DNA of 35,897 bases from an uncultured bacterium (GCA_964471275.1 CAYYGZ010000012.1:1-35897), one strand, 5' to 3'. Counted from the stretch's first letter, positions 1,064-15,869 are shown. Notes: generated from the sequence alone by a model not told the origin. A program made the numbers and translations.

Positions 1064-1789
1064 CTACGTCAGCAGACGCTCGCGACGCTCCATCTTCCTC
1101 AACCCCAGATACAGCAGCAGTGCACCGAAAACGAATACACCCACCCGGTTGAACAGAACCGTGTCCTCCCAGAGCGTCAGATCGGCGTTCGAAGGCACGT
1201 TGAACGGGTTGAGAAACGGATCGTACATCGTCCCGGAGAGTGATGACGAGAACATCAGGGCCAGCAGCAGGCACCCGAGTGACAGCATCCCGGCCGCATT
1301 GCTACTTCTAACGGACACGGCAAAATAGAACGTCAGATTGGCGATCAAATAGGCAGGTACGGCAGCATTCAATCCGCCGAGCACAAACGGAAACTCGGCA
1401 AAGAGAAAGTAGGACAGAGTGCTCATCGCCAGCGCCGACACCACGAGGATCCCGTGCAGGGACGTCAATCGGACCATCCAGATCGCATAGTGAGACGATG
1501 CCGTGCTGAACAGCGTCTCCAAAGTGTCGCGATCCCGCTCGGAGGCGATAATGTCCATGCTCAGGTAGACCGCCAGCGCGGCCATCGGAACCTGTACCAA
1601 GGTGTTCAGAGCAGCCTCGACGCTGAACCCGTCGCTTGGCCGGAACGTCAGGATCGCGTAGAGGATCGCGTAGTAGCCAGCCACACCGAGGACGCCGAAG
1701 GTCAGCTTCCGGTGAAACACGATCTTCAGGCTCAGCGTGACGATCTCGACACCGCTGCGCCACAGGTCTCTGTAAGTCAGGCCGCCCAC
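1064..1789 (-). CDS. ABC-2 type transporter permease (about 6 TM)
   Basis: Hydrophobic segments and IASERDRDTLETLFST (E-x3-TLE-L cytoplasmic coupling motif of ABC-2 permeases). Likely GTG start at 1789 with AAGGGG RBS, overlapping the upstream gene end. Confidence 0.8.
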   Translation of the reverse strand: MGGLTYRDLWRSGVEIVTLSLKIVFHRKLTFGVLGVAGYYAILYAILTFRPSDGFSVEAALNTLVQVPMAALAVYLSMDIIASERDRDTLETLFSTASSHYAIWMVRLTSLHGILVVSALAMSTLSYFLFAEFPFVLGGLNAAVPAYLIANLTFYFAVSVRSSNAAGMLSLGCLLLALMFSSSLSGTMYDPFLNPFNVPSNADLTLWEDTVLFNRVGVFVFGALLLYLGLRKMERRERLLT

Positions 1790-4700
1790 GCCAACCCCTT
1801 CCGCAGCAGGCAAACGTAGGCATCTTCGAGGTTCGGTGAAGGGGATGTGGCATCGAGTCCGTCCGGACACAACTCGGCGATGAATCGGGCCCGGATGCCG
1901 CCCGGGGATCGGACGTGTGTGATCAGATCAAGCGACGACTCACGGCGCTGGAACTCTTCCTCGGGAATGAGCGCTTCCCACACACGACCGTCGGCAACGG
2001 ATCGCATCGCTTCGGGAGCGCCATTATAGAGTACTTGCCCACGGTTCAGCACGGCAAGCTGGTTGCAGCTTCCCGAGATATCCTCAACGATATGTGTCGA
2101 GAACAGCACCACCCGGTCCTGGCTCAGCTTGGAGAGCAGGTTTCGGAACCGGATCCGCTCGATCGGATCCAGACCGGCAGTCGGCTCGTCGACCACGATG
2201 ATCTGGGGTTGATGAAGCAGCGTCTGCGCGATTCCGACACGTTGTCGCATCCCGCCGGAGAAGGTCCCGATCTGATCATCGATACGGTCCAGCAGGTTGA
2301 CCTCTTCCAGAATCTCGTGAACACGTCTTGACCGCGCGGTCTCTTCCCGAAACCCTTCCAACAGGGCTCGATAGGTCAGATACTGACCCGCACTCAGATG
2401 ATTGTAGAGCCCGAAATGCTGAGGCAGGTAACCGATTAGCCCATTTGTGGATCTCAGATCCGACACATTCTGACCGTTCACGAGTACCGATCCGTAGCTG
2501 GGTTCGAGAACCTGACAAAGAATCCGCATCATCGTCGTCTTGCCCGCTCCGTTCGGACCCAGCAGACCGAACATCCCCTTCTCGATAGAAAGAGTCACAC
2601 CGGCAAGTGCCTGAAACGGTTCGGCCTGCACACCGATCAAGGGAACGGATGCGGCCCCCTTATAGACACCTCTCCGAAGCCATCGCAATCGACCCGTAAT
2701 CGTCTCCGGATCCACCTGCCCCTCCCGCACACGATCGGCCAGCTTGCGTGCCCCGAGTACGGCCAGGAAAAGCACAACGGAAGCGATCGTCACAGACAGT
2801 GTCTTCACCCGAACGTGGGTTGTCACAAAGAACCCGATTGGAAGCAGCAGTCGCCAGATGCGCTCAATCCGCAAGACCCGGGCTGACCCCGAGAAGGAGA
2901 GGCCGATCAGACACGACCCCAGATGACGCAGATAGGCCCACGTCAGCGCAAAGAGGACGAACAGCCACAGCGGGTCTTCCAGGTATGCGTGAAAGAACAG
3001 GATCAGGAGAAGAAGAGGTATCTTCCACTGCAAACTCAGCTTTGTCGTAACGGGGTCTTCGAGTTCACCCTCCAGCAGCCCGCTTCTGTCTGTCCGCCTG
3101 TCGAAGCGCGCCCATTCCCTGCGGAGCCTTCCCGGTCCTCCGTAGATTTTCGTCAACGTGCGAAGTTCCAGTCGGTCTACCGATCCGATCACCACGGCGC
3201 TCGCTTGACGGCTTCGATGGACACGCAGCCCGGCCCACACGATCGTCAGAAACACCAGCCAGAAGGGCAGTGCCACGAGCCCGGTCCAGAACCAGCTCGC
3301 GTATCTGGCGTCGATCCAGTAGCAGGCGGCCGCGGTCATCCCCGTGGCGAGGAGGATACCGATCACGCCGATCTCGAGCAGCCAGGCTTTGGTGCGATCC
3401 AGCCCAACATATGCGACCGGGATGAACAGCAGCGTCGACAGCATCGAAATCGTCAGCCCACCCAGAACCGTTATCGCGAACGGTGGCCAGATTTCAAAAT
3501 CGCCGCCCATCTCGAGCGACAGGGGAAGAACACCCAGAAGCGTAGTTGCCGACGTCATCAGGATTGGCCGCACACGCGACCTGCCCGCGACCAGGACGGC
3601 CCGAGGTCTGCGGAATCCACGCTCTGCTCGAAGCGAACCGACCGAATCGATCAGGATGATCCCGTTGTTCACGGCGATGCCGAGCAGTACGACAAATCCG
3701 AGAAGCGCCATCGGCCCGGCCTGCGAGGTGAGACCCGTCCCCGTCATAATCAGGGCCCAGCACGAGCCGACGACCGCCGTCGGTATCGTACCGAACACGA
3801 TCAACGGGGCGCTGAGCGATTCGAACAGCGAAGCCAGGATCATATAGATGAGCAGCGCGGCAATTGCCATCATCCAGTAGTAAACCGTGTCCGTCTGGGC
3901 AGAAACCAGCTCCACGGTCACACCGGCCGGGATCACCATATCCTGAACAACCGACCGAACCGTAGCTCGCGCACCATCCAGCAGAACCTGCGATTCGGAG
4001 ACATCCGTAGTGAATCGATACTGAACGGAAATTCGACGCGATTGATCCGTCCTAACGATCGTACTGCGTCCTTCATTCGTCCGGACCCGTGCCAGCTCAT
4101 CGAGCGGCGTATACTGTCCACCCACTGTCCTGACAGGAACCTGGCGCAGACCGGCCAGACCCGGACCATCCGCCTCGGGGTCTTCGGTTGTCCGCAGATC
4201 GATCGGTGTTTCAGTGCCGTCGGGGTTCAGGAACGCGACCCGTGTCTGGAAGCCTTCTGGATTGGCCGCCTCAACCGCGTTCAGCACGTGTGTTGTTTCA
4301 AGCCGTCTGTCGAAGAGCGAGATCGCATCCGGGATGATCTCGACTTCGGGCGAGCTCCGTTCGACATCCGCGCGCACGCTGTTCGCGTCGATCTCCACCA
4401 TCTCCTCGAGCCGATAGGAGAGATCATCCGCGATCATTCGCAGAATCGTGAAGTCGTAACCACGAATCACCGCCTCCTCGGACGGTGCCCCGGTCTGCAG
4501 GCTGAACCCGCCGCCACCCCGTCCGCCGCGCCGCCCACCACCTCGACGCCCGCCGCCTCCCGTGATCGGAGCCTCGTAGGTCGCGACGCCTGCATTGAAA
4601 TCGTCCAGCTTCTCATCCAGCTTCGCTTTGATCTCCTCGAGCGACATCCCGTCCGGCCGTTCCCCGCGGTCCTTCAGCATCACGGTAACGCTTCCCAGCC

Positions 4701-6477
4701 CCTCATCGGCGCTCGCCGTAAACCGATTGACACCGGGAAGCTCCCTGACCATCGCCTCCACCTCTGTCACCGCCTCATCCGTGGCCTCGAGCGTGGTCCC
4801 CTCGGGAGTATCTACATAAACGGTGAACTGTGATTCTTCCTGAACGACCTGCTGCTGCAGCATGAAGAAGAAAGACAGGCTTAGCGTGACAAGAAAAACG
4901 AGACCGACACCGATCGAGAGACGGACCGGATGACGAAGACACGCCTTGAGCAGCAGGGTATACTGTTCGATCAATCGACCGGTTGCGAGGGGCGGTGGAG
5001 CGGCCGTGCTGAGTGTTCGGGACGCGAGTGCCGGTACGAGCAGCAGAGCCACAACCAGCGAGGCGAGAACGGGAAACGTGATCGAGAGGGCGAGCTCTGT
5101 CAGGATATCCTGAAAATCGCTCGTGATGAAGACTACGGGAAGGAAGACCACGACCGTCGTACCTGTGGCCGCCACTACGGCACGGCTCACATCTCGTGTA
5201 CCGGCTCTCGTAGCCTCTTCGGGAGACTTCCCCATCTCGAAATGCTTGAAGATGCTCTCCATCACGACAATGCTGTTATCCGCCAGCATCCCGATCGCAA
5301 GGGCAAGCCCACAGAGAGAGAGCACGTTTATCGATAGCCCGAAGGCGTAGAACAGGTTGAATGCCAGGAGAAGCGAGGTCGGAATCGCGAGCAACAGCAC
5401 GGCGACAAAACGGAGGGTGCGCAGAAACAGGAAGAGAACCACCAGACCCAGGAGGACACCCACCAGTGCGGCCTGCTTGAGCGTATTGAGGGCCTCGCCC
5501 ATCAGGTCGGCCTGACTGCTTGTCACGACGATCTCGATCCCGTCCGACGCGTAGACAGTGTTGAGTCGAGTGACTGCCTCTTCTATCCCTGCGGCAACAT
5601 CCAGCAGGTTCGCTTCGTCTTCCTTCTGAATCTGAACGGCAACCGAAGCCTTCCCGTTCACGCGACTGACATCCGTCCGCCGCTGAACGCCTGGGTAGAC
5701 ACGGGCCACATCGCCGATCGTCAGCGGGATCTCCGGCTTCAGGACAACGTCTCGGATTCCCGCGATGTCGGTGAATTGCGTCTGAACGCTCACGGGAAGG
5801 ACACGCGATCCGTCATAGATCATCCCGAGCGAAGCGCGCGGCCGATTGTAGCTCGAAAGCCGACCGTTGATGTCATTGAGCGTAAGTTCGTGCGCCTCCA
5901 TCACGATCGGATCCGCGATGATGGCGACGGACTTCTGTCTGCCGCCTTGCACACCCGCGTTCACCACACCGTCGACAGCCTCCAGCTCCGGGCGGATCTC
6001 GTTCTCGGCGAAATTCCGCAGCCAGTCAAGATCGGCTTCACCCAGGACCTGGAGCATCATAACGCGGGAACTGATGTCGGAAGTATCGAAACGCTGAACG
6101 ATGATGTTCGTGCGGGGGGGAAAGAGCGGCTGCAGCCGTGAGACACGCGACTGGATCTGAAGAAGCGCGAACTTCATGTCTGTATCCGGTGCATAGGACA
6201 CGCGGATCGTCGCGCGGTTGGCCATCGACGTGGAGGTCATCTCGACCACACCGTCGAGCTTCCCGATCTCACCTTCGATCGGAATAACGAGGTCCCGCTC
6301 GACCTGCTCCGGACTCGTACCTCGAAGCTGAACAGCCACAAAAACCTCCGGATAGATCACCTCCGGAAGCAGCTCGACCGGCAGTCGGTCGACCGAGATC
6401 AGCCCCAGCAAACTGAGCGCCGCGAACAGCATCGCCATCGTTACCGGCCGCTTTATGGGGAGATCCGATATACGCAC
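1777..6477 (-). CDS. RND efflux permease (AcrB/AcrD/AcrF family) fused to C-terminal ABC ATPase domain, about 1566 aa
   Basis: RND motifs IKRPV, LPVELLP, GMLADNSIVV, GIAVNNGIIL and RVRPILMT, then Walker A GPNGAGKTT, Q-loop GYLPQ, signature FSGGMRQR, Walker B IIVVDEP and H-loop STH in one uninterrupted frame. GTG start at 6477 after GGAG. Confidence 0.92.
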   Translation of the reverse strand: MRISDLPIKRPVTMAMLFAALSLLGLISVDRLPVELLPEVIYPEVFVAVQLRGTSPEQVERDLVIPIEGEIGKLDGVVEMTSTSMANRATIRVSYAPDTDMKFALLQIQSRVSRLQPLFPPRTNIIVQRFDTSDISSRVMMLQVLGEADLDWLRNFAENEIRPELEAVDGVVNAGVQGGRQKSVAIIADPIVMEAHELTLNDINGRLSSYNRPRASLGMIYDGSRVLPVSVQTQFTDIAGIRDVVLKPEIPLTIGDVARVYPGVQRRTDVSRVNGKASVAVQIQKEDEANLLDVAAGIEEAVTRLNTVYASDGIEIVVTSSQADLMGEALNTLKQAALVGVLLGLVVLFLFLRTLRFVAVLLLAIPTSLLLAFNLFYAFGLSINVLSLCGLALAIGMLADNSIVVMESIFKHFEMGKSPEEATRAGTRDVSRAVVAATGTTVVVFLPVVFITSDFQDILTELALSITFPVLASLVVALLLVPALASRTLSTAAPPPLATGRLIEQYTLLLKACLRHPVRLSIGVGLVFLVTLSLSFFFMLQQQVVQEESQFTVYVDTPEGTTLEATDEAVTEVEAMVRELPGVNRFTASADEGLGSVTVMLKDRGERPDGMSLEEIKAKLDEKLDDFNAGVATYEAPITGGGGRRGGGRRGGRGGGGFSLQTGAPSEEAVIRGYDFTILRMIADDLSYRLEEMVEIDANSVRADVERSSPEVEIIPDAISLFDRRLETTHVLNAVEAANPEGFQTRVAFLNPDGTETPIDLRTTEDPEADGPGLAGLRQVPVRTVGGQYTPLDELARVRTNEGRSTIVRTDQSRRISVQYRFTTDVSESQVLLDGARATVRSVVQDMVIPAGVTVELVSAQTDTVYYWMMAIAALLIYMILASLFESLSAPLIVFGTIPTAVVGSCWALIMTGTGLTSQAGPMALLGFVVLLGIAVNNGIILIDSVGSLRAERGFRRPRAVLVAGRSRVRPILMTSATTLLGVLPLSLEMGGDFEIWPPFAITVLGGLTISMLSTLLFIPVAYVGLDRTKAWLLEIGVIGILLATGMTAAACYWIDARYASWFWTGLVALPFWLVFLTIVWAGLRVHRSRQASAVVIGSVDRLELRTLTKIYGGPGRLRREWARFDRRTDRSGLLEGELEDPVTTKLSLQWKIPLLLLILFFHAYLEDPLWLFVLFALTWAYLRHLGSCLIGLSFSGSARVLRIERIWRLLLPIGFFVTTHVRVKTLSVTIASVVLFLAVLGARKLADRVREGQVDPETITGRLRWLRRGVYKGAASVPLIGVQAEPFQALAGVTLSIEKGMFGLLGPNGAGKTTMMRILCQVLEPSYGSVLVNGQNVSDLRSTNGLIGYLPQHFGLYNHLSAGQYLTYRALLEGFREETARSRRVHEILEEVNLLDRIDDQIGTFSGGMRQRVGIAQTLLHQPQIIVVDEPTAGLDPIERIRFRNLLSKLSQDRVVLFSTHIVEDISGSCNQLAVLNRGQVLYNGAPEAMRSVADGRVWEALIPEEEFQRRESSLDLITHVRSPGGIRARFIAELCPDGLDATSPSPNLEDAYVCLLRKGLAWAA

Positions 6478-6564
6478 TGATCCACTCCGTATACTTTTCC
6501 GCAGGCTGGAACGCCGCAAATTGGGGCACCGCAGGTTGGGACGCCACAGGCCGGAAGCCTGCGC

Positions 6565-9500
6565 CTATCTGGCTACCTCACGACTCACTGCCTTCACCCC
6601 CCTGAACCCATCCACCCATTCATACACCACCGGTATCACCACCAGCGTCATCAACGTCGATGACACCAGGCCCCCAATCACCGCGATCGCCATCGGGGCT
6701 CTCAACTTGCCACCCTCTCCCAGACCGATGGCCATCGGAAGGAGCGCCAGAATCGTGGTCGCACTGGTCATCAGAATCGGCCGCAGCCGATCCCGTGCAG
6801 CTTGCACGATCGCTTCCCGAACCGTCTGTGCCGTCTCCCGAAGCTGATTGATCCGATCCACGAGAACGATCGAATCGTTGACGGCGATCCCGCCAAGCAT
6901 GATCACACCGATAAAGGCGGTGATGCTTAAAGGTTCATTGAGAAGCCAGAAACCCAGGACGACCCCGACACCGGCAAGCGGCAGCGACAGCATCACCGTG
7001 AACGGATGCAGAAAGGACTCGAAAAGGGATGCCATCACCATATAGACAAGCACGATCGAAAGAATCAGCGCAAACTGCAGGCTGCCAAACGATTCGGCGC
7101 GATCTCGCTCTTCGCCGCCGAGCGACACCTGGTAACCGGGAGGCAGTTCGACCCCGGTCAGGATCGCCTGTAGCTGCCCGACAGCTTGCCCGAGCGTTGA
7201 CCCCTCGCTGACATAAGCGTTCACCCGGCCGATCCGCCTCTGTCGTTCACGGCGTATCTCTCGCGGGCCCTCGATGATCTGCGGATCGGCCACGTCGCCA
7301 ACCGTCAGGATGCTCCCATCGGGTGTATCGACGCGGATGCTCGAGAGCTCCGTCATATCCATCTCGCCAAAACCGACCCGGATCGTGCGCGCTCGCTGGC
7401 CCTCGGAATACTCGCCGACATCGTCACCGGACAGCCGACGCTTCAGATCACCGATCAGGTCATCCGGCGTCAGACCGAACGATGCAGCGACATCCAGACG
7501 CAGCGCGAGATCCAGCTCCGGCTGCCCGCCCTGAAAGCTGCTGCGGACATTGTATACGGCAGACGCGGCCGTCAGCCGCCCCGCGAGGTCATCGGTTAGC
7601 CTTCTGAGCGTTTCGAGGTCGTCACCTGAGATCTCGACAACGATCGGCGCGGACTGCGTCCCCATCACCGTCTCAAGCGGGCTCTCGTGCAGCTCGTACT
7701 CCACTTCGACATTCGCAAGATTACGCAGGTGCTCGTCGATCTCATTCACGATCTGGCCGACCCGACGTCGGTCTCCTTCCGACAGCAGAACCGACATCGT
7801 TCCCCGGTTCGGTCCCGTCGGCTCACCGACGTTCCACACCTGTGCGGGGTCCACACCGACACGTCCGTAGACGTGAGCGACATCGTCACCGCCGACCGAC
7901 TTCACGATGTCGTCGATCCGCTGTGCGACACCATCGGACAGCTCCAGTCTTGTGCCCTCGGGAAGCGCGAAAGCCACGTGGAAGATCCCCTGGTCCTCTC
8001 GCGGAATGAACGTCACGTCGATCGCGCGCCCCGTAACAAACGTCAGAGCCAGAACGCCCAGGACGGCAAGGAACACAATCCCCTTCCGGTCGAGTGCTGT
8101 GCCGAGCAGGTTCGCGAAAACCTTGTATCGTCCCTCCACAGATGGCGCGTGCTGTCGTCTGAGCACACGAGAAGCGATCATCGGCACGACGGAGAGAGCC
8201 ACGGCCAGCGAGGAGAGCAGCGAGAAGGCCACGGTCCAGGCCTGCTCCTTGAACAGCTCACCGGCCAGCCCGTGGAGATAAACGATCGGAAGAAACACCG
8301 AAACGGTCGTCAGCGTTGAGGCGAGGATCGCAGTACCCACCTCGCCGGCGCCTCTGGAAGCCGCCACAGACGCATCCTCACCGCGTTCGAGATGCCGGTA
8401 GATGTTCTCGATCACGACAATCGCGTTATCGACCAGCATCCCCGCGCCCAGGGCAAGTCCTCCGAGGGACATCACGTTCAGCGTAAGCCCCTCGAAATAC
8501 ATCAACGTGAACGTCGCCAGAACCGAGATCGGGATCGCGATACCGATCGTGGCCGTCACCGCCCAGCTGCGCAGGAACAGGAACAGCACGACGATCGCCA
8601 GGATGCCTCCGTAGATCGCCGCATCCTTCACTTCAGTCACCGCAAGCTCGATGAACCGCGCCTGGTTCTCCACTACGGTGAAGGTCACACCCGGCAGGTC
8701 AACACCAAGGTCATCTAGCGCGGATCGGGCCGTCGCCACGACGCTGACCGTGTTCGCGTCCGCCTCCTTGTGGATTGCGAGTCCGATACACTCGGTGCCG
8801 TCCAACCTCGAGATTGACTCCCGTTCCTCGTAAACCAGCTCGACCTGTCCCACGTCCGAAACACGTACGGGTACGCGGAGTTCACCGGCCACCGCGCCAC
8901 CGCCACGACGCTCCCCGACGATCAGATCGTGTATATCCTCCAGACTCCTGAGACGCCCCAATCCCTTGACCTGGTAAGAGCGCTTCGCATCCTTGAGCGT
9001 TCCGCCGGACACATCCAGGTTTGCCTGCCCGATCCGCTTGGCAATCGCCCCGGCATTCAACCCGAATGCCTCCAGGAGATACGGGTCCAGGGTCACGCGT
9101 GCTTCCTTCTCCGCGCCACCCTCGATCTCGGCGGATGCCACTCCTTCGAGCGCCTCGAGATTCGGTTTGATCGCCGTTTCGATCGTGCCGAGCAGATCGT
9201 CGATATCCATCGGTCCTCGAAGCTCCGCGTCAGCGTGTACGGCAACCCGCATCACCGGCAGCGCCTGGGGATCTTCCCGCGTCACATCGAGCGTCTCGAT
9301 CGCGTCATCCGCCCCGTAGAACGCCGTCTTCTTCTGAACATCCAGAAGCGCGAAATCCATATCCGCATCCCACGCGAACTCCGCAACCACCACCGATTGA
9401 GATGCGCGTGTCACCGAATAGACACGCTTCACCTTCGAGATCGTCTGCACATCCCGCTCCAGCCGGCGAGTATAGCGCTCCTCCATCTCCCACGGTGACT

Positions 9501-9660
9501 TACCCGGCGCCCGCAGATCCACCGAAATCACGGGCGTGTGGAGATCCGGAAGCAAATCCGTCCCCAACCGCTCGAGCGAGATATACCCGAGCAGGACAAC
9601 GGCCAACGCCGCCATCGAAATCGTGGTCGGAAACCGCGTTGAGAATTCAGGAATAGTCAT
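6565..9660 (-). CDS. RND efflux permease (AcrB/AcrD/AcrF family), 1031 aa
   Basis: Typical length; motifs LGTDLLPD, GMLVDNAIVV, GIAVNDSIVL, RLRPILMT and MAIAVIGGL. Confidence 0.95.
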   Translation of the reverse strand: MTIPEFSTRFPTTISMAALAVVLLGYISLERLGTDLLPDLHTPVISVDLRAPGKSPWEMEERYTRRLERDVQTISKVKRVYSVTRASQSVVVAEFAWDADMDFALLDVQKKTAFYGADDAIETLDVTREDPQALPVMRVAVHADAELRGPMDIDDLLGTIETAIKPNLEALEGVASAEIEGGAEKEARVTLDPYLLEAFGLNAGAIAKRIGQANLDVSGGTLKDAKRSYQVKGLGRLRSLEDIHDLIVGERRGGGAVAGELRVPVRVSDVGQVELVYEERESISRLDGTECIGLAIHKEADANTVSVVATARSALDDLGVDLPGVTFTVVENQARFIELAVTEVKDAAIYGGILAIVVLFLFLRSWAVTATIGIAIPISVLATFTLMYFEGLTLNVMSLGGLALGAGMLVDNAIVVIENIYRHLERGEDASVAASRGAGEVGTAILASTLTTVSVFLPIVYLHGLAGELFKEQAWTVAFSLLSSLAVALSVVPMIASRVLRRQHAPSVEGRYKVFANLLGTALDRKGIVFLAVLGVLALTFVTGRAIDVTFIPREDQGIFHVAFALPEGTRLELSDGVAQRIDDIVKSVGGDDVAHVYGRVGVDPAQVWNVGEPTGPNRGTMSVLLSEGDRRRVGQIVNEIDEHLRNLANVEVEYELHESPLETVMGTQSAPIVVEISGDDLETLRRLTDDLAGRLTAASAVYNVRSSFQGGQPELDLALRLDVAASFGLTPDDLIGDLKRRLSGDDVGEYSEGQRARTIRVGFGEMDMTELSSIRVDTPDGSILTVGDVADPQIIEGPREIRRERQRRIGRVNAYVSEGSTLGQAVGQLQAILTGVELPPGYQVSLGGEERDRAESFGSLQFALILSIVLVYMVMASLFESFLHPFTVMLSLPLAGVGVVLGFWLLNEPLSITAFIGVIMLGGIAVNDSIVLVDRINQLRETAQTVREAIVQAARDRLRPILMTSATTILALLPMAIGLGEGGKLRAPMAIAVIGGLVSSTLMTLVVIPVVYEWVDGFRGVKAVSREVAR

Positions 9661-9722
9661 GGTTTGATGGGTATATCAATAATGACGTTCGACATTCGAC
9701 TCTGCTTCGCCTTCACCCCTCG

Positions 9723-9768
9723 AGCCCCAACGAAGCGACCATCGTTAGCCTGGGGCGCCAGCGCCAAG
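9723..9768 (+). repeat. Degenerate REP-like element (AGCCCC...GCGACC...AGCCTGGGGCG), same family as 29684-29779
   Basis: Aligns by eye with AGCCCCGGAACGGGGCGACC...AGCCTGAGGTG at 29684. Confidence 0.5.
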
Positions 9769-9883
9769 AAACCCACGCCCCTCGCAACACACCGCGCCGC
9801 CATCAACAAACAACACGCCCCACAAAAACCGTCGGCGCCCTTATGGGTAACAGATCCCCACACCACCCAGACGCCTCACGAAG

Positions 9884-9946
9884 ACATCGAACCCCGAATA
9901 TCGAACACCTTCAACATTCGATATTGGACATTCAGCATTCGACATT
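9884..9946. repeat. Short heptameric tandem repeats in partly inverted arrangement
   Basis: ACATCGA ACCCCGA ATATCGA ... ACATTCG ATATTGG ACATTCA GCATTCG ACATT; AATATCGAA pairs with TTCGATATT. Confidence 0.6.
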
Positions 9947-9970
9947 GCCCGTGCCCCTGCCTCATCCCCC

Positions 9971-11041
9971 CTACTTCCTCCCCGAAGACGTCACCCGCAC
10001 CCTTGTCCTCGACCGCAGCGTCTCGTAGTTACTCGTAATCAATCGATCACCTTCCTCGATCCCCTCAACAACCTCGATCGAATCCCGACTCTCCAGCCCG
10101 GTCTCCACCTGCCGCATCTGCGCCCGCGCGCTCTCCTCGACAAACACCACATCGTTCCCCTGCCGCTTGACGACCAATTTCTTCGGGACAACAACCACAT
10201 CGACGTGCGCGGACTTCACGATCTCGGCCCGCACAAACATCCCGGGTCGCAGCATCAGATCTGCATTACCCACGGTGGCCATCACGCGGAGTGTACGCGT
10301 CGCCGGGTCCAGAACCGGATCCACGGCCGTAATCTTCCCGTCGAAAACGCGATCGGTGAACGCGTAATTCGAAACACGCACCGGCTTCCCGAGTTCGATC
10401 GCCAGAACCTGTGAGTTCGGGATTCGCAGATCCACGAGCACCTGGCTGTAATCGACAACCTTCCCGATCACCGCATTCGCCTGGATCTCCGTTCCCTGCG
10501 TAATCTGGGTCACCTCGGTCATCACACCCGTGATCGGGGCCCTGACCTCGGTCTTCCGGACCTTGATACGGGCTTCCTCGTAACTTGTCTCCGCATCCGC
10601 CAGCGCCTTCCTCGCGTTGTTCACTTCGACTTCCGTCGTCAGCCCTCGTGCAAAGAGTGCTTCCTTCTCCTTCACCGTGTGTTGTGCGGTCTGACGCGAC
10701 AGCTTCCGCGAGGCGATATTCGCCCCCACGATCCACTCGTCATTCTCGATCCGCGCAACAACCTGCCCCTCCGTCACCGCAACCCCATCGGACAGACGAC
10801 CGATCCCCTCGACAGCAGTCAAGAACAGATCTCCTTTGACCTCGGTCAGGATCTCCGCCTCACGGATCGAGCGAAGTGTCCCCGTCGCTGTAAGGGTCGA
10901 CTCGATTGTCGACAGCGTGGCAGGTGAAACCGTCACAGGAACCGTAAGATCGACACTCCGTTCCTCGGTGGGCCTGCTGCACGCCGCGGACAGAACGACA
11001 AGCACGAGTACACAACGAATGCTGGGGAAACCTGTTCTCAC
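9971..11041 (-). CDS. RND efflux periplasmic adaptor subunit (membrane fusion protein), lipoprotein
   Basis: Likely GTG start overlapping the upstream TGA. Lipobox-like LSAAC; MFP motifs VRAPITG, DPATRT, LRPGMF and GIEEGDRLI. Confidence 0.92.
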   Translation of the reverse strand: MRTGFPSIRCVLVLVVLSAACSRPTEERSVDLTVPVTVSPATLSTIESTLTATGTLRSIREAEILTEVKGDLFLTAVEGIGRLSDGVAVTEGQVVARIENDEWIVGANIASRKLSRQTAQHTVKEKEALFARGLTTEVEVNNARKALADAETSYEEARIKVRKTEVRAPITGVMTEVTQITQGTEIQANAVIGKVVDYSQVLVDLRIPNSQVLAIELGKPVRVSNYAFTDRVFDGKITAVDPVLDPATRTLRVMATVGNADLMLRPGMFVRAEIVKSAHVDVVVVPKKLVVKRQGNDVVFVEESARAQMRQVETGLESRDSIEVVEGIEEGDRLITSNYETLRSRTRVRVTSSGRK

Positions 11042-14000
11042 CTTCTCCCTCCTCCTCTGCCAAAGCCACCTTGACGACCGCCGGGTCCTCCCCTTCCACC
11101 GAAGTTCCACGCGGGGATATCTTCTTCATACACCAGATCCGGATTGTCCGGATCCACAAAACGCCAGCGAATCGCGTCGGCGTAAAGCCGGCCATCCGCA
11201 TCGTCTGACATCTCAACCGTCGCAGCCACCTGTCCGCTGAACGAGAAGCGGCCGAGTAGATTCCAGCCTCCCTTCAGATGCTCACTCTCGATCTGCAAAG
11301 TGTCGACACCCCCACCGTGAGTGACCCGCAGTTCAAACGATTTACTCAACCGAAGTCGCCGTCTCATCTGTTGCGGCGGGTAGTAGTATGCCACGTCATA
11401 CTCACCGTCCTGCGGAATGCGTGCACGCCACACGGCCGGTTGTGCGCCGTCACCCGGCCGCTTCCACCGAAAATTCGTCTCATATCGGCCGTATGCCATC
11501 GGCAGTTCGCGTATGATCCAGTTCCCGCCCTTCAGCTGTGGACGCAGATACTTGGTGACCCGGCGGACAGGCATCGAGAACCCTTCATCTTCGTTGTCGA
11601 CCACAACTTCCGCCAACCGGGAGTCGTCATCCTCAACGGGTCTGACGTAGGATCGCGGGTTCCCGCTGACAACCTGCTCGGGAATACTCAGGGGGGCCAT
11701 CATCGGTCGCCGATTTCTCGCAAAGAACGGATCGACGGTCACGCGGGTGGGCCGGTCCCAGAGAATCAGCCCGACCTCGACTTCCGTCCCCCCTTCGATC
11801 TCGACACCCTTGACGGCCTCATCCTCCCGGCTCGCCACCGTTACCTGGACAAAGCCACGTCCCGGCTCGGCATTACGCACGCGCACCGTGACCTGGTAGA
11901 CGACCGCCCCCCACCCGTCATCCATCTTGCGCGCCGTCGCTTTTGTGAGCGTGTAACCGGGCACGTGCGTCGAGTAGATCCACTCGTTCACGAGTCGCTC
12001 GAGTGTCTCCTTCCGGTCCTCACGGCGTGTCCCCTCAGCGAACGCGGTCTCGAAGTCCTCAAAGGGCACGTCGGTATAGCGACTTCGGACGCCAATCTCT
12101 TCCATCGTCGAAAGAAAGGCCTCATCACCCACCACAGATTCCACCATACGGAACATCGTCGGGCCTTTCGCATTCAGAGCCCGGCGATACAGATCTGGTT
12201 CGGCTTCGGGATTCAGATCGGCAAATGAGCGCTGCCCCATCTCCGTCATCAACGTATCCCAGGCGGCCGACTCATTCTGCCGTGGCCGTCTCCCTCGGCG
12301 CCCCTTGCCACGGCCCCGCCTGCCCCATCGCGAGCTCGTGGACTCACGCAACGCCGTTTCCACATCCTGCTGCAAAAACAGCGGAAGACCTCGCTCGACA
12401 AGCGCAGACTGCTCACCGGAGAAGGACCGGTCAAACGACCAGAGCTGGACGATCGGACTTCGGAACAGTCCACCTCGGCCGCCTTCCTTGCTGAAGAATG
12501 TCTCCAGCACCGCTGATACGAGCAGATCGCGTTTCACCTGCGCGGGATCCTGGTCGCCACCACGGCTGAACCGTTTCCGACGTTCCAGATCGGTCCTGAA
12601 CCGCTTGCGCAGCAGGACATCCTCTTCCACCATCAGCACACCCGGCTGAACCAGCCCCCCACGCTCCTCCCAACCATCGTAATACCATTGGATCTGAAAG
12701 GGCACCTCGACAACGGAGAGTCTTGGGAACGGGTAGGGCAACCCCGTCTCCTGTTCCATCACATCGATAATCTGATCAAGCGCCCCAAGCGCAGGCTCCT
12801 CTGCATCCTTAAAAAATTCGACCAGTCGGAGATGTGTGCGATGGATATACAACGCCAGATCCACCCCATGGACGTTCGCCTCGAACACCTCGTAGTGACC
12901 GGCATTCAGCGAAAAGGCCGGAACAGCCGACTCGACACCCCACACCGACGTGACACGCCCCTCGGACGCTGACGTATCACGGACTGCGCCCTGTGTGACG
13001 ACCGTCAGATCCTCGGGGATGCTGATCGTCACCTCCGCCGTTGCGTAGTCCGGGTCGACCTCCGCTCTGTAATCGGGTCCCGGTGTTGGATACCACCTGC
13101 TGCGTGGAGGCAGAAAGACAGACCGGGGCGTAATCCACGCCGTCATATCACCCATGTAGAAGGGATGGCGGTTCTTCTTGAGCCGCGCGTCTGTCTGCGT
13201 CAGATCGAAGGCGTCCACATCGACGATCCCGGCATAGGCAACGGTCACCGCCACACTGTCTCCTGACGGAATCGAGAGTGGGATCCGGACCAGGGCCTGG
13301 GTTCGTTCGTGCGGCACGGTCACACCCCCTGCGCTAACCTCAGAAACCGCGAGACCCGCATTCAGACTCAGCAGAAGGGAATCGACGCCCACAGGTTCCG
13401 TATTCGTAAGATTCAGCGTCACCCTCGCCGACAACGGAACGCCCTGGTTCATCAAGTCGAGGGACATCGTGTAGTGGGTCACACGAGGTACGGGGCGGTC
13501 CGCCAGGGACTGGTGTTCTGCCAACAGATCTGCGCGAAACGAAACCGCGTTCGTTTCGAGACGTTCGGAATAGGCATAGACCGTTGCCGATCCGGCGATT
13601 CCGACTACCGCCATTACCCTCCCGATCCACATCCAGCTCGCCGACTGGGCCAGTCGGGGGTACCGGTTGATCGACAGGCCGAGCAGCCCAAACGCCAGGA
13701 TCACATACATCAGACGCTGACGGATCACGTCAGAGACATCACCAATGCCCAACAGGTCGGAGTAGAAAATCGGCGCGAAGAAAGCCCCGAAATCGAACAC
13801 ACCATCGTAGCGTTCGCCCAGAAACATGACGACAGCGATGGTATAGGCGCCGACCGTCAGGGCGACAGCGGTCTGCTTCCTCAGCACAGCGCCCAGCACG
13901 AAGGTCAGGGCTGAGACGAAAACGAGTGAGGGCAGTGCCATCAGCGTCAGATAGATCAGATAGGGTTCCAGCGTGAACGGCACACCCGTGATGCTGATCT

Positions 14001-14403
14001 TCGCGGCCTGGATCAGTACAGTCGTCAGCAGAACACCAAGGCTGAGCGCACCCAGCGCCGTCATCGCTCCCAGATACTTCCCCACAACGAGTTCGGCCGT
14101 CGAGATGGGACTCGCATCGACGACCTCGTGTACGTGGGCCCGCTCATCCCCTGCTCGGAAATCCCCCACTACAAAGGCCACCACGACCGTCTGCAGAAAG
14201 CTGAACACGTAGAACGGTACAAACGCGCTGATCGCGATAGCAGATGGAAACTCGACACCTCTCGCCTCCGCGATAGCCATCACGACACCGATCGCGATCG
14301 GAATCAACATCCCGAGCGTCCCGAGCACGCGAAACCGCGTACTCCGGAACAGCATTATCCGCTCGTATCGAGCCACACTGAATATGTTGAACAGAAAGCG
14401 CAT
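11038..14403 (-). CDS. ABC-2 permease fused to M1 aminopeptidase-like (no HEXXH) and C-terminal golvesin-like beta-sandwich domains
   Basis: N-terminal multi-TM region (ARYER..., ELVVGKYLG); M1-like VTHYTMSLDL, LPYPFPRLSVVE, KGPTMFRMVESVVGDEAF and LVNEWIY; C-terminal GEYDVAYYYP...GGWNLLGRFSF...LYADAIRW. ATG at 14403 fits the family N-terminus. Confidence 0.8.
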   Translation of the reverse strand: MRFLFNIFSVARYERIMLFRSTRFRVLGTLGMLIPIAIGVVMAIAEARGVEFPSAIAISAFVPFYVFSFLQTVVVAFVVGDFRAGDERAHVHEVVDASPISTAELVVGKYLGAMTALGALSLGVLLTTVLIQAAKISITGVPFTLEPYLIYLTLMALPSLVFVSALTFVLGAVLRKQTAVALTVGAYTIAVVMFLGERYDGVFDFGAFFAPIFYSDLLGIGDVSDVIRQRLMYVILAFGLLGLSINRYPRLAQSASWMWIGRVMAVVGIAGSATVYAYSERLETNAVSFRADLLAEHQSLADRPVPRVTHYTMSLDLMNQGVPLSARVTLNLTNTEPVGVDSLLLSLNAGLAVSEVSAGGVTVPHERTQALVRIPLSIPSGDSVAVTVAYAGIVDVDAFDLTQTDARLKKNRHPFYMGDMTAWITPRSVFLPPRSRWYPTPGPDYRAEVDPDYATAEVTISIPEDLTVVTQGAVRDTSASEGRVTSVWGVESAVPAFSLNAGHYEVFEANVHGVDLALYIHRTHLRLVEFFKDAEEPALGALDQIIDVMEQETGLPYPFPRLSVVEVPFQIQWYYDGWEERGGLVQPGVLMVEEDVLLRKRFRTDLERRKRFSRGGDQDPAQVKRDLLVSAVLETFFSKEGGRGGLFRSPIVQLWSFDRSFSGEQSALVERGLPLFLQQDVETALRESTSSRWGRRGRGKGRRGRRPRQNESAAWDTLMTEMGQRSFADLNPEAEPDLYRRALNAKGPTMFRMVESVVGDEAFLSTMEEIGVRSRYTDVPFEDFETAFAEGTRREDRKETLERLVNEWIYSTHVPGYTLTKATARKMDDGWGAVVYQVTVRVRNAEPGRGFVQVTVASREDEAVKGVEIEGGTEVEVGLILWDRPTRVTVDPFFARNRRPMMAPLSIPEQVVSGNPRSYVRPVEDDDSRLAEVVVDNEDEGFSMPVRRVTKYLRPQLKGGNWIIRELPMAYGRYETNFRWKRPGDGAQPAVWRARIPQDGEYDVAYYYPPQQMRRRLRLSKSFELRVTHGGGVDTLQIESEHLKGGWNLLGRFSFSGQVAATVEMSDDADGRLYADAIRWRFVDPDNPDLVYEEDIPAWNFGGRGGPGGRQGGFGRGGGRR

Positions 14404-14518: not shown

Positions 14519-15403
14519 CTACTCCTCTTCCAACAAACGCCCCAACCGCAGCACGTATGCATCCTCCAGGTTCGGGTCTACCGATCGAGCTCCCTCCGGG
14601 GGCTCTTCTGATCCGACGAAACGAACATCCATCTCGTTCCCCTCGTTGCTCACATTGACCACCTGAAATCGCTCCGACAACGACATAAATGCCCGATCAT
14701 TCACACGCGCTTCCCAGACACTGCCTTCCGCCGACCGAACAAACGCTTCGGGCCTCCCCGTAAACACCAGCTGCCGCGGCGCCAGCACGGCGATCTCCTC
14801 ACACGTGCTGGAGATATCCCCCACGATGTGGGTGGAGATCAGAATCGCCCGATCCGTACTCAGTCTCCCAAGTATGGCCCGAAAACGAATCCGTTCCTCC
14901 GGATCCAGACCGACTGTCGGTTCATCCACAACCAGAAAATCCGGGTCCGCCAGGATGGCCTGCGCGATCCCCAGTCGTCTCATCATACCCCCGGAGAAAG
15001 TACCAGATCGTCGGTCGCGGACCTCCGTAAGCCCCACGTCTTCCAACGCTCTGGCTACGCATTCACGACGTTCAGCGCGCTTCCGGATTCCGGCCAGTCT
15101 CGCCCGGTAGTCCAGGAACTCACCCGCCGTGAGCTGCGGGTAGGATCCGAAGTGCTGTGGGAGATACCCAAGACGTCGGCGAACCGCTTCGCGCTCGGTC
15201 ACCAGGTCGTGACCCTCGATCAGGACCCGCCCGGACGTAGGCAACATCTGCGTAGCCAGGATGCGAATCAGGGTCGTCTTGCCTGCACCGTTCGGACCCA
15301 GCAGCCCAAAAGTGCCCCGCCCGATCTCGAGAGTCAGATCCTCGAGCGCTGGCGGGGCATCTCTGCTGTAGGCCTTCGTCAGATGTTCAATCTGAATGGC
15401 CAT
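14519..15403 (-). CDS. ABC transporter ATP-binding protein (ABC-2 exporter type)
   Basis: IQIEHLTKAY, Walker A GPNGAGKTT, FSGGMMRR, LVVDEPTVGLDP, STH and C-terminal PNLEDAY. Confidence 0.95.
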   Translation of the reverse strand: MAIQIEHLTKAYSRDAPPALEDLTLEIGRGTFGLLGPNGAGKTTLIRILATQMLPTSGRVLIEGHDLVTEREAVRRRLGYLPQHFGSYPQLTAGEFLDYRARLAGIRKRAERRECVARALEDVGLTEVRDRRSGTFSGGMMRRLGIAQAILADPDFLVVDEPTVGLDPEERIRFRAILGRLSTDRAILISTHIVGDISSTCEEIAVLAPRQLVFTGRPEAFVRSAEGSVWEARVNDRAFMSLSERFQVVNVSNEGNEMDVRFVGSEEPPEGARSVDPNLEDAYVLRLGRLLEEE

Positions 15404-15422
15404 AGTCTCTCAATTCGCTCGC

Positions 15423-15869
15423 CTACCGCCCGCCGCCACCGCCACGGTTTCCACGACCGCCAGCACCCCCTCGACCACCCCGGGTGGCCTGACGCTGCAT
15501 ATGCTTCTTGAGTCGGTCGACCTGCGCCTCGTTCAGCACGCTGGACACAGCCGCCAGCAGCTTACCCCGGAGCCCCATCATATCTTCACGGATATCTTGG
15601 AAATCGCGCTCTCCGCTTCGGACACTCCGCATCAGGTCCTGCTGCTTCTGGTGTACGGGCTTGAGCGCCAGTCTCAGCCCGACGAGCTGGTCATCCGTCA
15701 GATTCGACTCTGTATCGAAAGCCAGCATACCCAGAATCTGGCTGGCATTCACGTTCCCACCGCCGCGCCGGCCGCCGCGTCCCCCGCCACCGGGCTGGGC
15801 AACAGCTGCCTCGAACGTGAAACCAACCGTCAACCCGGTGAGCAGCACAGCTATAAAAAAACGCCTCAT
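15423..15869 (-). CDS. Secreted Spy/CpxP-like (LTxxQ) helical protein with Gly/Arg-rich tails
   Basis: GGAGGT RBS; signal peptide ending AVA-Q; NLTDDQ and VLNEAQ motifs bracket a helical core. Confidence 0.7.
   Translation of the reverse strand: MRRFFIAVLLTGLTVGFTFEAAVAQPGGGGRGGRRGGGNVNASQILGMLAFDTESNLTDDQLVGLRLALKPVHQKQQDLMRSVRSGERDFQDIREDMMGLRGKLLAAVSSVLNEAQVDRLKKHMQRQATRGGRGGAGGRGNRGGGGGR

Follow-up and report, generated by a model that had tools for sequence, protein, structure and literature searches.

An export gene cassette joining an RND permease and an ABC ATPase in one polypeptide, conserved across several bacterial phyla

Results

Layout of the cassette

The window analysed here is the whole stretch of 35,897 nt from an uncultured bacterium (GCA_964471275.1, CAYYGZ010000012.1:1-35897). 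Positions 1064 to 15869 hold seven ORFs, all co-directional on the minus strand. In Pfam and NCBIfam profile searches, all were present, with the domains that the first-pass annotation had described. The gene farthest upstream (15423..15869) encodes a small LTXXQ-like protein of 148 aa with no Pfam or NCBIfam match. It is followed, at 14519..15403, by a free ABC ATPase (NBD) of 294 aa, of the DrrA/GldA-like ABC-2 type (ABC_tran, E 4.4e-31; drrA subfamily, E 4.2e-53), and, at 11038..14403, by an ABC-2 permease that continues into a catalytically dead M1 fold and a Golvesin_C-like end, as seen with Pfam, an AF2 model and Foldseek. A periplasmic adaptor (membrane fusion protein) lies at 9971..11041 (HlyD_D23, E 1.1e-24; TIGR01730 RND_mfp, 169.3 bits, above the curated NCBIfam cut-off of 94.9). 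Beyond a 310-nt spacer (9661..9970) come an RND permease of 1031 aa (6565..9660; ACR_tran, E 2.2e-219, profile positions 3-1020 of 1021) and its partner, an RND-NBD fusion with an ORF of 1580 aa (1777..6519; ACR_tran and ABC_tran). A small ABC-2 type permease, 241 aa counted from its likely start, the GTG at 1789 (1064..1789, in an ORF spanning 1064-1870), closes the series.

Several gene starts had to be set inside the maximal ORF. The adaptor, with a maximal ORF at 9971-11110, likely starts at the GTG at 11041. For the large permease, whose maximal ORF (11038-14562) would encode 1174 aa, orthologue alignments point to M54, at 14403. The fusion probably starts at residue 15, since an identical database protein (P0003) has 1566 aa. 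With starts placed according to the orthologues, the several overlapping junctions announced by the first-pass annotation reduce to two, a GTGA at 11038-11041 and 13 nt at 1777-1789; the remaining junctions are gaps of 19, 115, 310 and 87 nt. The 310-nt gap, which contains repeated CGAATGT-like words, is specific to the window: adaptor and RND genes abut in the corresponding locus of a sister genome (L081), and the spacer occurs only once in its own genome and matches no Rfam family. There is no outer-membrane factor gene in the cassette of the window, and OEP homologues are found on other contigs of the genome.

The fusion protein

In this protein, a complete 12-TM RND pump is followed by two extra membrane helices and then by an ABC ATPase, which a four-helix membrane insertion splits. 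The RND body, residues 15-1039 of the 1580-aa ORF (3403..6477), was delimited by ACR_tran (residues 18-1039, E 6.7e-180, profile positions 2-1019 of 1021) and by alignment to solved RND chains. The rest of the chain was modelled with AF2 (residues 1040-1580, pLDDT 82.3). TM13 and TM14 (residues ~1041-1108, 3196..3399; model helices 2-34 and 37-69) bring the chain back to the cytoplasm. There, residues ~1116-1126 (3142..3174) form the first beta-strand of the ATPase (model strand 77-87), with an LTKIYG motif that includes the A-loop Tyr1126; K1124 and Y1126 are invariant among aligned fusion proteins. The chain then leaves the ATPase for an insertion at residues ~1131-1291 (2647..3129), composed of an amphipathic helix, TM15-18 and a cytoplasmic helix (model helices 92-106, 117-140, 144-169, 173-199, 202-226 and 240-252). 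The rest of the ATPase follows at residues ~1302-1580 (1780..2616), holding Walker A, Q-loop, signature, Walker B, D-loop, H-loop and a C-terminal domain (ABC_tran, residues 1307-1448, E 2.6e-29). Strands 1 and 2 are thus separated by some 175 residues including four membrane helices, and the domain is not contiguous.

Fold alignments agree with this split. In all 50 matches listed, solved NBD chains align from model residue 73-77 onwards, and most of these alignments begin at chain residues 0-6, with a later beginning, at residues 35-73, for three ABCG chains of plant or human origin. They skip the insertion, ~210-264 residues being aligned across a span of 463. Z-scores to solved NBDs among the matches listed were 24.9-28.2 (4yer_B, 28.2; LptB, 27.0), and NosF was among the top matches (7osf_B, E 1.7e-17, also 7o0y_B). 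The insertion bears no likeness to an ABC-2 permease (hhalign probability 0.5%). W1165, W1185, R1237 and G1267, in the linker, are invariant in 16 aligned proteins. One variant fusion (L028) is devoid of the six extra helices, and at the same site of its ATPase carries a 55-residue insertion without membrane helices.

Two ATPases and two ABC-2 permeases

In the fused NBD, the A-loop aromatic residue, Walker A Lys, Q-loop Gln, SGG, Walker B Asp-Glu, D-loop and H-loop His are invariant (36/36). The same catalytic motifs are invariant in the 18 aligned orthologues of the free NBD, one row being gapped at the A-loop Tyr. From these motifs, both NBDs look active. In a tree, fused and free NBDs form separate clades of one subfamily, with the phylum split mirrored in each, which marks them, at the sequence level, as old paralogues.

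The large permease is predicted to have 7 TM helices (~13507-14403), then a periplasmic M1 fold (~11731-13485) and a Golvesin_C-like domain (~11167-11526). Pfam matches were weak for the first two (ABC2_membrane_3, E 0.0068; Peptidase_M1, E 0.0011) and clear for the third (Golvesin_C, E 3.5e-16). The M1 assignment comes from structure: with the AF2 model (pLDDT 79.5, pTM 0.73), Foldseek retrieved IRAP (8cgp_B, E 2.5e-19, 638 columns), and also ERAP1, tricorn F3 and PepN. Neither the HEXXH zinc-binding motif nor the GXMEN exopeptidase motif is present in any of the 32 cassette orthologues, which indicates that the M1 domain is catalytically dead. The periplasmic module comprises ~800 residues, and its inactive M1 fold is kept across phyla.

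The small permease is a remote member of its family. It matched ABC2_membrane_2 weakly (E 0.0037; 17 bits, under the cut-off of 27.2) and NCBIfam models only at E 0.0065, and has a distant likeness to the membrane domain of the large permease (hhalign 51%, E 1.5e-4). Its association with the fusion is strict. Among 168 genomes of the phylum, 81 have both genes, 2 the fusion only, none the small permease only, and 85 neither; the two fusion-only genomes (G001 and G095) are fragmented assemblies, and the two genes adjoin in every genome carrying both. The small permease is an obligate partner of the fusion.

A complex of the fused NBD with the small permease was predicted with a score of 0.63. 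Of 157 solved complexes, 116 attained this mark, as did 2 of 215 mismatched pairs; the best of three controls scored 0.00. Runs shared at least 94% of contacts, and partner pLDDT was at least 73. In this model the Q-loop groove of the NBD faces the N-terminal helix of the permease (4-26) and a helix with conserved E91 and F94 (87-98). The NBD-permease interface that the first-pass annotation had anticipated is thus predicted for this pair, although the score may mirror likeness to solved NBD-permease interfaces rather than this pair itself.

Conservation and distribution

The fusion is real and old, and the cassette is conserved across several bacterial phyla. Of 40 relatives, 32 gave one full-length match each, in 31 cases with no stop. 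PF00873 and PF00005 occur together in at least 120 database proteins (all 120 listed), most of them of ~1550-1620 aa, with identity down to 39%. Full-length distant loci, 26 in number, come from Bacteroidota, Zixibacteria and others. The same gene order (free NBD, ABC-2 permease with the M1-like ectodomain, adaptor, RND, RND-NBD fusion, small ABC-2 permease) accompanies the fusion in Bacteroidota, Zixibacteria, Latescibacterota, KSB1 and Acidobacteriota. By hand count, 83 of the 168 genomes of the phylum have the fusion. It is also present in complete single-contig genomes and in cultured species, and the Bacteroidota carriers, whose version adds a gene for a TolC-like outer-membrane factor, include cultured and gut-associated genera.

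Adaptor and second RND are present at 26/26 distant loci, the latter directly upstream of the fusion at 25 of them and at 10/10 relatives' loci. The small permease lies downstream of the fusion at 24/26. The free NBD was found at 21/26, the other five loci ending short of its expected place. All cassette genes but this one are in place in 10/10 relatives; it is adjacent in 8/10, and in the remaining two an orphan copy (62% identity) is encoded at another site, without an adjacent permease. The ABC-2 partners are therefore kept among homologues, both permeases and the free ATPase, in the same order. Because the partners are conserved and an interface is predicted, the first count of two NBDs and two membrane domains stands. 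Apart from these genes, flanking families were shared by at most 3 of 36 loci, and no conserved neighbour hints at the cargo.

The 148-aa protein is the exception. It has a signal-peptide-like start, an LTDDQ motif and Gly/Arg-rich ends; it gave no Pfam match to the Spy/CpxP model (LTXXQ, PF07813) at E up to 0.01, and the LTXXQ clusters among its atlas neighbours (0.87-0.91) are no more than a lead. A homologue was present at one of ten relatives' loci, that of L081, from the same genus. It is a lineage-specific accessory outside the conserved cassette. Of the seven-gene set first proposed, six genes are thus conserved, or seven with the outer-membrane factor in Bacteroidota.

The proton relay of the two RND permeases

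Relay positions were read from an alignment to PDB 8yr0_A. We take the AcrB relay to consist of Asp407 and Asp408 (TM4), Lys940 (TM10), and Arg971 and Thr978 (TM11). The fusion has D414 (36/36), N415 (34/36, with 2 Ser), N951 (36/36), N952, R982 (36/36) and T989 (36/36). The second RND has D411, N412 and N928 (35/35), D929 (24/35), R958 and T965. Neither RND thus has the equivalents of Asp408 and Lys940, and a relay of the AcrB type is lacking from both. The same D-N / N-N pattern is found in four stand-alone RND paralogues of the genome (C44, C195, C169 and C213), and the AcrB-type D-D plus K in none of nine paralogues compared from the same genome. As these residues are common to stand-alone paralogues, they are no argument for an ATP-driven RND. 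The pattern is a subfamily trait, neither the mark of a dead pump nor a consequence of fusion. An earlier suggestion that ATP energises the RND found no support: the TM4 Asp and the TM11 Arg and Thr are retained in both RNDs, just as in the stand-alone paralogues. Going by these residues, the RND part looks like a normal pump.

Discussion

We propose that the cassette encodes a two-step export line in which an RND tripartite pump is tethered to a heterodimeric ABC-2 exporter, a reading that we hold to be about as likely as not. The exporter, of the ABC-2 (type V) kind, would have two unlike halves, one made of the fused NBD and the small permease and the other of the free NBD and the large permease, and the fusion would hold it against an RND assembly of the two RND paralogues. 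Starting from the cytoplasm or the inner leaflet, a cargo that is amphipathic or bears a glycan would be brought by ATP hydrolysis to the periplasmic side, where the M1 / Golvesin_C ectodomain would hold it. The RND, still driven by the proton gradient, would take it up and expel it through the adaptor and an outer-membrane channel. Since RND pumps load from the periplasm or the outer leaflet, it makes sense to pair them with a feeder that brings substrates from cytoplasm to periplasm. Against this reading speak the lack of an outer-membrane factor gene in the window's cassette, the lack of a conserved neighbour that hints at the cargo, and the L028 fusion, which does without the six extra helices. 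A further point against it is the mismatch between the threefold symmetry of an RND trimer and the twofold symmetry of an ABC dimer, which, at a guess, a 2:1 RND stoichiometry would solve. We hold more tentatively, leaning against it, that all parts form a single machine using both energy currencies. One fused NBD per RND trimer would pair with the free NBD, forcing a 2:1 RND heterotrimer, and the six helices would clamp the heterodimeric ABC-2 exporter to the RND, so that cargo raised with ATP from the cytoplasm or inner leaflet would pass by way of the dead-peptidase ectodomain directly to the proton-driven RND and the outer-membrane duct.

An ABC-2 permease with a large periplasmic domain would, by analogy, also fit machines that do periplasmic work without transport. 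The ABC part could be a mechanotransmitter in the manner of NosDFY, MacB, LolCDE or FtsEX, nothing crossing the inner membrane through the ABC permeases; we find this rather unlikely. In this reading, cytoplasmic ATP hydrolysis would move the M1 / Golvesin_C ectodomain so that a periplasmic or outer-leaflet substrate is loaded, unloaded or cleared into the RND. The retention across phyla of so large a module with a complete but inactive peptidase fold fits well with it, as does the rank of NosF among the fold matches of the fused NBD, and a small permease devoid of ectodomain would make the dimer asymmetric. However, most permeases with this ABC-2 fold are true exporters, two-step export fits the data equally, and periplasmic work offers no reason for joining NBD and RND covalently. 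In another reading ATP gates or drives the RND, the fused NBD acting through TM13-18 to replace the proton gradient or as an energy-state switch. The covalent join through six conserved membrane helices, with their four invariant linker residues, and the loss of the Asp408 and Lys940 equivalents speak for this. We nevertheless think it improbable, given the stand-alone paralogues with the same pattern and the invariant TM4 Asp, TM11 Arg and Thr; moreover, the Q-loop groove is predicted to be filled by a canonical ABC-2 coupling helix, and the L028 variant keeps the fusion without the six helices.

Another explanation is co-localisation only: an RND tripartite pump and an ABC-2 system that work independently, though in one pathway or against one stress, would be fused and clustered for the sake of co-expression or co-assembly, and neither mechanical force nor substrate would pass between them. 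Each part does have all features of its own family. Mere co-regulation fits poorly, because the constraints are tighter than it would lead one to expect: the fusion and the complete gene order predate the divergence of several phyla and have been retained, the small permease never occurs without the fusion (0/85 genomes), and the odd interruption of the NBD by a membrane insertion is itself conserved. We consider this explanation unlikely. As to the long ORF being an artefact of a lost stop codon, a frameshift or misassembly, the genome is indeed metagenome-assembled and fragmented (369 contigs). Yet the same frame is open in complete single-contig genomes and cultured species, the linker is conserved at the protein level, and contigs of three other studies show 0 differences, one of them spanning 3309-3550 across the RND-linker boundary. 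With homologues this widespread, we rejected an artefactual origin, whose probability we regard as negligible. The fusion is accordingly not unique to this assembly.

RND and ABC pumps are the two main export engines of the Gram-negative envelope, and textbooks treat them as alternatives. The fusion family has both engines in one polypeptide with a fixed partner set. If the parts cooperate, as in the proposed export line, the cassette would be a natural, direct example of a cytoplasm-to-outside relay from a primary to a secondary transporter. It would also pose a trimer-versus-dimer symmetry problem that is solvable by structure, and present an ABC ATPase that tolerates a membrane domain inserted in its first beta-hairpin. 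A single two-currency machine, if true, would be a transporter class without described precedent. About half of the genomes sampled from one phylum have the cassette, as do many Bacteroidota, and its presence in cultured species makes the question testable. We found no publication on an RND-ABC fusion cassette, in line with the first-pass annotation, which knew of no characterised system with this architecture, and an export cassette joining an RND pump to an ABC motor is apparently undescribed in the literature.

Comparison with known systems

MdtABC-TolC and MuxABC-OpmB are heteromeric RND tripartite pumps. The cassette shares with them two tandem RND permease genes that follow an adaptor gene, and its Bacteroidota version has, like MdtABC-TolC, an outer-membrane factor gene. 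MdtB and MdtC are among the best NCBIfam matches of both cassette RNDs, and MdtB also matched among PDB chains (9lyq_B, E 8.8e-69). In contrast to MdtABC, one cassette RND is prolonged by six more membrane helices and an ABC NBD, the operon has as fixed members two ABC-2 permeases and a free NBD, and the relay reads D-N / N-N(D) instead of D-D / K. We know of no RND carrying an ATPase. NosDFY resembles the ABC part, with an ABC-2 type ATPase of similar fold (7osf_B, 7o0y_B) and a large periplasmic module served by the permease. However, it has no RND, adaptor or fusion, and NosD, which has a role in copper delivery, is a separate protein. SecYEG-SecA with SecDF handles one cargo in two steps, the first driven by ATP and the second, by an RND-superfamily protein, driven by protons; the Sec parts are separate proteins that are not linked covalently, have neither adaptor nor outer-membrane duct, and use an ATPase of another family.

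SecDF is named in a review (PMC8277102), which also describes MacAB-TolC as an ABC ATPase, an adaptor and an outer-membrane channel in one envelope-spanning exporter. The cassette likewise associates an ABC ATPase and an adaptor (with an outer-membrane channel in Bacteroidota), but MacB is an ABC transporter of another fold class serving as the inner-membrane pump, whereas the cassette has an RND as well as ABC-2 permeases. The ABC part also resembles TCDB 3.A.1.145, founded on Q1D520 of Myxococcus xanthus, in which an ABC-2 permease with a C-terminal M1 peptidase domain has its own ATPase, and which its source gives as functionally uncharacterised (PMC3924187). The free NBD and large permease have the same two-gene layout, the latter with an N-terminal ABC-2 membrane domain and then the M1 fold, and the NBDs of stand-alone systems of this type are the nearest relatives of both cassette NBDs. 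The cassette differs in its M1 domain without HEXXH or GxMEN (32/32), its 7 rather than 13 TM helices in the large permease, its extra Golvesin_C-like domain and its setting in an RND operon.

Gene content of the cluster

Seven co-directional ORFs lie on the minus strand between 1064 and 15869. They encode a 148-aa protein (15423-15869) without a Pfam or NCBIfam family, a free ABC ATPase of 294 aa (ABC_tran, E 4.4e-31), a large permease (1174-aa ORF) that matches ABC-2 and Peptidase_M1 weakly and Golvesin_C clearly (E 3.5e-16), an adaptor of the RND type (TIGR01730, 169 bits versus a cut-off of 94.9), an RND permease of 1031 aa (ACR_tran, E 2.2e-219), a 1580-aa ORF (1777-6519) in which ACR_tran (residues 18-1039, E 6.7e-180) is followed by ABC_tran (residues 1307-1448, E 2.6e-29), and a small permease with a weak ABC-2 match. 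The co-directional cluster was confirmed, and the RND, adaptor and ABC domains read by the first-pass annotation were recovered by the Pfam and NCBIfam searches, weakly for ABC-2 and M1.

Starts were placed by orthologues, which shortened several ORFs. Residue 15 is the probable start of the fusion, an identical database protein being 1566 aa long, and M54 (14403) that of the large permease; GTG codons at 11041 and 1789 are the probable starts of the adaptor and small permease genes. With these starts, only two of the several overlapping junctions initially described persist, GTGA at 11038-11041 and 13 nt at 1777-1789.

In the window, a 310-nt spacer (9661-9970) with repeated CGAATGT-like words and a hairpin (9819-9847) parts the adaptor gene from the RND gene; in the sister genome these two genes abut. 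No second copy of this spacer was found in the genome, and it has no Rfam match; indeed, no Rfam family matched at gathering score in the window. Promoter and terminator scans of the window were uninformative (2 sites versus 4.1 in shuffles, and 14 versus 11.3, respectively). Three cluster proteins contain Gly/Arg-rich, RGG-like low-complexity tracts within parts predicted to be non-cytoplasmic: the fusion in a periplasmic loop (residues about 665-690, about 4450-4525), the large permease at residues about 745-765 and at its C-terminus (about 11041-11110), and the 148-aa protein at both ends. In alignment A1, the tract of the fusion is common to Gemmatimonadota, Acidobacteriota and Latescibacterota members, and is short or absent in those of KSB1 and Calditrichota.

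The RND-ABC fusion is real and recurs in distant genomes

The covalent link between an RND pump and an ABC ATPase is real. When long proteins were searched with the linker-plus-ATPase part, ACR_tran and ABC_tran (PF00873 and PF00005) were both present in all 120 proteins listed, most of them 1540-1646 aa long and the least similar 39% identical; their source names include Gemmatimonadota, Acidobacteriota, Latescibacterota, KSB1 and Calditrichota. Of 40 genomes related to that of the window, 32 had a single match covering the whole protein (31 free of stops, the other with a TAG), four had the protein in pieces, either because contigs were fragmented or because frames were split, and four had no match. 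A scan of one genome per species yielded 26 full-length loci at approximately 35% identity, including the cultured Draconibacterium mangrovi, Marivirga tractuosa and Parabacteroides massiliensis, and one Zixibacteria genome. Within the window's phylum, which the source names of the nearest proteins suggest is probably Gemmatimonadota, a match reaching into the linker was counted by hand in 83 of 168 genomes (E at most 1e-96).

The DNA of the window is present in marine metagenomes from 13 studies. Contigs from three other marine studies are identical to it, with 0 differences, and one of these (3309-3550) crosses the boundary between RND body and linker. An RNA library (X20) contained three exact pieces, 2827-3063, 3486-3714 and 8236-8464; the pieces are contigs and could stem from DNA carry-over. 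That the fusion is an artefact is thus a negligible prospect, given its full-length recurrence in 32 of the 40 relatives and at 26 distant loci, and the zero-difference contigs of three studies; nor is it confined to this assembly, the outcome named at the outset as fatal to the hybrid-machine proposal.

A joint omitting 2436-2521, in the conserved Walker A region, was seen in two other sequence sets, X5 and X12 (side 23, likeness 90), and was read as contigs of other organisms. Linker-plus-ATPase proteins devoid of the RND part amounted, in a first search, to 2 short proteins (577 and 553 aa) among 8000 candidates scored; a second search yielded 60 representatives with E of at most 0.001, 19 of them at least 1500 aa long. 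The short ones may be truncated at contig ends. Long open frames at the small permease gene, for example in genome G164, could be mistaken for a triple fusion. As their lengths differ from those obtained from the fusion match, they were put down to alternative frames in GC-rich DNA.

A membrane module within the fused ATPase

Alignment of 16 diverse members showed a conserved linker: two hydrophobic helices after RND TM12, then the motif LTKIYGxPGRxxREW, in which K1124 and Y1126 are invariant, then four further hydrophobic helices preceding Walker A. With 12 + 2 + 4 helices, the fused ATPase stays cytoplasmic. In an AlphaFold2 model of residues 1040-1580 (35 sequences, pLDDT 82.3, pTM 0.65), a beta-strand occupies model residues 77-87 and four long helices lie within 117-226. 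On structural re-alignment, the solved chains aligned from model residue 73-77 in all 50 entries listed, and in most of these this position matched the first residues of the solved ATPase chain. About 210-264 residues were aligned across a span of 463, with Z of 24.9-28.2 (28.2 for 4yer_B, 27.0 for LptB) among those 50 entries. In the model, the A-loop tyrosine thus lies on strand 1 of the fused ATPase, and the four-helix membrane module is inserted between that strand and strand 2. No likeness to the ABC-2 permease was seen for the extra helices (hhalign probability 0.5%), and the reading that the six are a degenerate permease was rejected.

One long-branch variant, at locus L028 (10001-14317, in an unclassified MAG), encodes a fusion of 1438 aa that lacks the six helices and has, after strand 1, a soluble insertion of 55 residues at the insertion point of the other fusions. 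Its gene order is adaptor, ATPase, RND, permease-like gene, fusion, with no small permease downstream.

A conserved six-gene cassette

Each of the seven window proteins was used to search the ORFs at the 26 distant full-length loci and at the loci of 10 relatives. The fusion has fixed partners, in the recurring order free ATPase, large permease, adaptor, RND, fusion, small permease. At the distant loci, adaptor and second RND were present in 26/26, and the free ATPase in 21/26, the remaining five loci stopping short of its expected place. The ABC-2 partners foreseen by the hybrid-machine proposal were there: the small permease at 24 of the 26 loci (all but L028 and L077, which stops at the fusion) and the large permease at all loci other than L014, where the contig ends. 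Conservation of all seven genes held for six of them; a homologue of the 148-aa gene was found only at a same-genus locus, one of the 10 relatives' loci. Five cassette genes were always present in these 10 loci, and the free ATPase gene adjoined them in 8. In the two other genomes its orthologue (62% identity) lies far from the cassette with no permease adjoining (G005:C1:3064348-3065214 and G022:C1:4698572-4699450, loci L091 and L092); the free ATPase is thus retained though unlinked.

In Bacteroidota, a 1.5-kb gene between large permease and adaptor encodes an outer-membrane efflux protein (OEP, E 1.9e-45 at locus L004, of Draconibacterium mangrovi). The window and its relatives have no such gene in the cassette; OEP homologues adjoin other RND genes on other contigs. 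No recurrent neighbour hinting at a cargo was found in a sample that excludes the upstream side in Bacteroidota; the top family occurred in 3/36 loci, all close kin.

Several cassette genes are split into several ORFs, RND, fusion and large permease in a Prolixibacteraceae MAG (L011) and RND and large permease in Marivirga tractuosa strain ac6 (L006), which reflects either decay or sequencing indels. Divergent from the cassette, on the plus strand of the window (16473-35559), lie genes resembling those for sulfated-polysaccharide breakdown: GH5/apiosidase-like proteins, a PhyH dioxygenase, two sulfatases, a BNR protein, RpiB, an arabinose/fucose-isomerase-like protein and a GFO/IDH/MocA oxidoreductase, together with three large ORFs without Pfam family (18780-19886, 19908-21329 and 21433-24126). 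None of these genes was found next to the cassette at the other loci.

Two intact ATPases and their permeases

Catalytic motifs were all invariant in 36 fused and 18 free ATPase sequences, with no degenerate site. In a quick maximum-likelihood tree of 124 ATPase domains, the fused ones formed one clade (SH-aLRT 96, or 94 with L028 included). The free ATPases of the cassette clustered together, near two sequences from truncated contigs and four from Chloroflexota or others. A third clade (support 99) contained stand-alone ATPases, several of them followed by distant relatives of the large permease; the three clades met as a three-way polytomy in this tree. Within each of the two cassette clades, the window's phylum separates from Bacteroidota in the same way, so that the two paralogues have long travelled together.

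Pairing of the small permease with the fusion is strict. Its profile had exactly one match in 81 of the 168 genomes of the phylum, each adjoining the end of the fusion gene; both genes were found in 81 genomes, the fusion only in 2 (G001 and G095, whose assemblies comprise about 500 and 980 contigs), the permease only in 0, and neither in 85. Complex prediction with the linker-plus-ATPase part and the small permease, both supplied as alignments, gave a median score over three runs of 0.63, versus 0.00 for the best of three controls; 116/157 solved complexes and 2/215 mismatched pairs reached the mark of 0.63. Runs shared at least 94% of contacts, and pLDDT of the small permease was at least 73. 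The confidently predicted contacts involve the ATPase's Q-loop groove (model residues 293-357, 393 and 397) and, on the permease, the N-terminal helix (4-26), a short helix (87-98) with invariant E91 and F94, and the C-terminus. An ATPase-permease interface, as the first-pass annotation had anticipated, is therefore predicted for this pair. Its arrangement is the usual seating of an ABC-2 permease on its ATPase, so the score may stem from resemblance to solved complexes.

The small permease has a distant relative in the membrane domain of the large one (hhalign probability 51%, E 1.5e-4, 214 columns), which carries an acidic helix at the matching position. The AlphaFold2 model of the large permease (31 sequences, pLDDT 79.5, pTM 0.73) has an N-terminal helix, seven membrane helices and then a big non-membrane part, which aligns with M1 aminopeptidases across 600-670 columns (9-14% identity; IRAP 8cgp_B, E 2.5e-19; also ERAP1, tricorn F3 and PepN). 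Neither HEXXH nor GxMEN was found in any of 32 cassette large permeases examined. Because there are seven helices, the M1-like part would lie on the side opposite the N-terminus, and would be periplasmic if the N-terminus is cytoplasmic, as it is in other ABC-2 permeases.

Proton relay and mechanism

Relay positions were taken from an alignment to the solved RND 8yr0_A. In the fusion, the AcrB Asp407 position is Asp (36/36), those of Asp408 (34/36) and Lys940 (36/36) are Asn, and Arg and Thr are retained at those of Arg971 and Thr978. The partner RND shares the Asp and Asn, with an Asp one residue past the Lys940 position in 24/35. We compared these with the stand-alone RND paralogues of the window's genome (contigs C44, C195, C169, C213, C17, C28 and C27). 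The AcrB-type Asp-Asp/Lys relay occurs in 0/9 paralogues, cassette genes included; Asp-Asn in TM4 occurs in six of the nine, both cassette genes counted, most also with Asn-Asn in TM10. Those on C44, C195, C169 and C213 show the D-N / N-N pattern likewise, which is therefore an RND subfamily trait, uninformative on ATP drive.

We favour, at about even chances, a tethered exporter. Fused ATPase with small permease, and free ATPase with large permease, would form one heterodimeric ABC-2 exporter; this would be held against the RND assembly and feed it cargo, which the RND would expel. Two difficulties for this proposal are the mismatch between an RND trimer and an ABC dimer, and the missing outer-membrane factor in the window's lineage. 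Alternatively, ATP might power periplasmic work by the ectodomain without transport, in the manner of NosDFY or MacB, which we consider unlikely but worth keeping in mind. Somewhat less probable is that the ABC and RND components are independent systems, merely co-localised. That ATP gates the RND itself or drives it, the latter being one of two roles originally suggested, is the most doubtful of these: the altered relay could have been taken as its sign, but the same residues in four stand-alone paralogues rule out that argument.

We found no publication on an RND-ABC fusion in the full-text literature covered, which excludes most subscription journals and TCDB, nor is one mentioned in the passages on "fused", "hybrid" and "Bacteroides" of a 2021 review of tripartite systems (PMC8277102). 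Within that literature, the parts are of known kinds and their combination matches no described system. The free ATPase and large permease of the cassette have the same two-gene layout as TCDB 3.A.1.145, an ATPase plus an ABC-2/M1 permease, of unknown function according to the passage of PMC3924187 that describes it.
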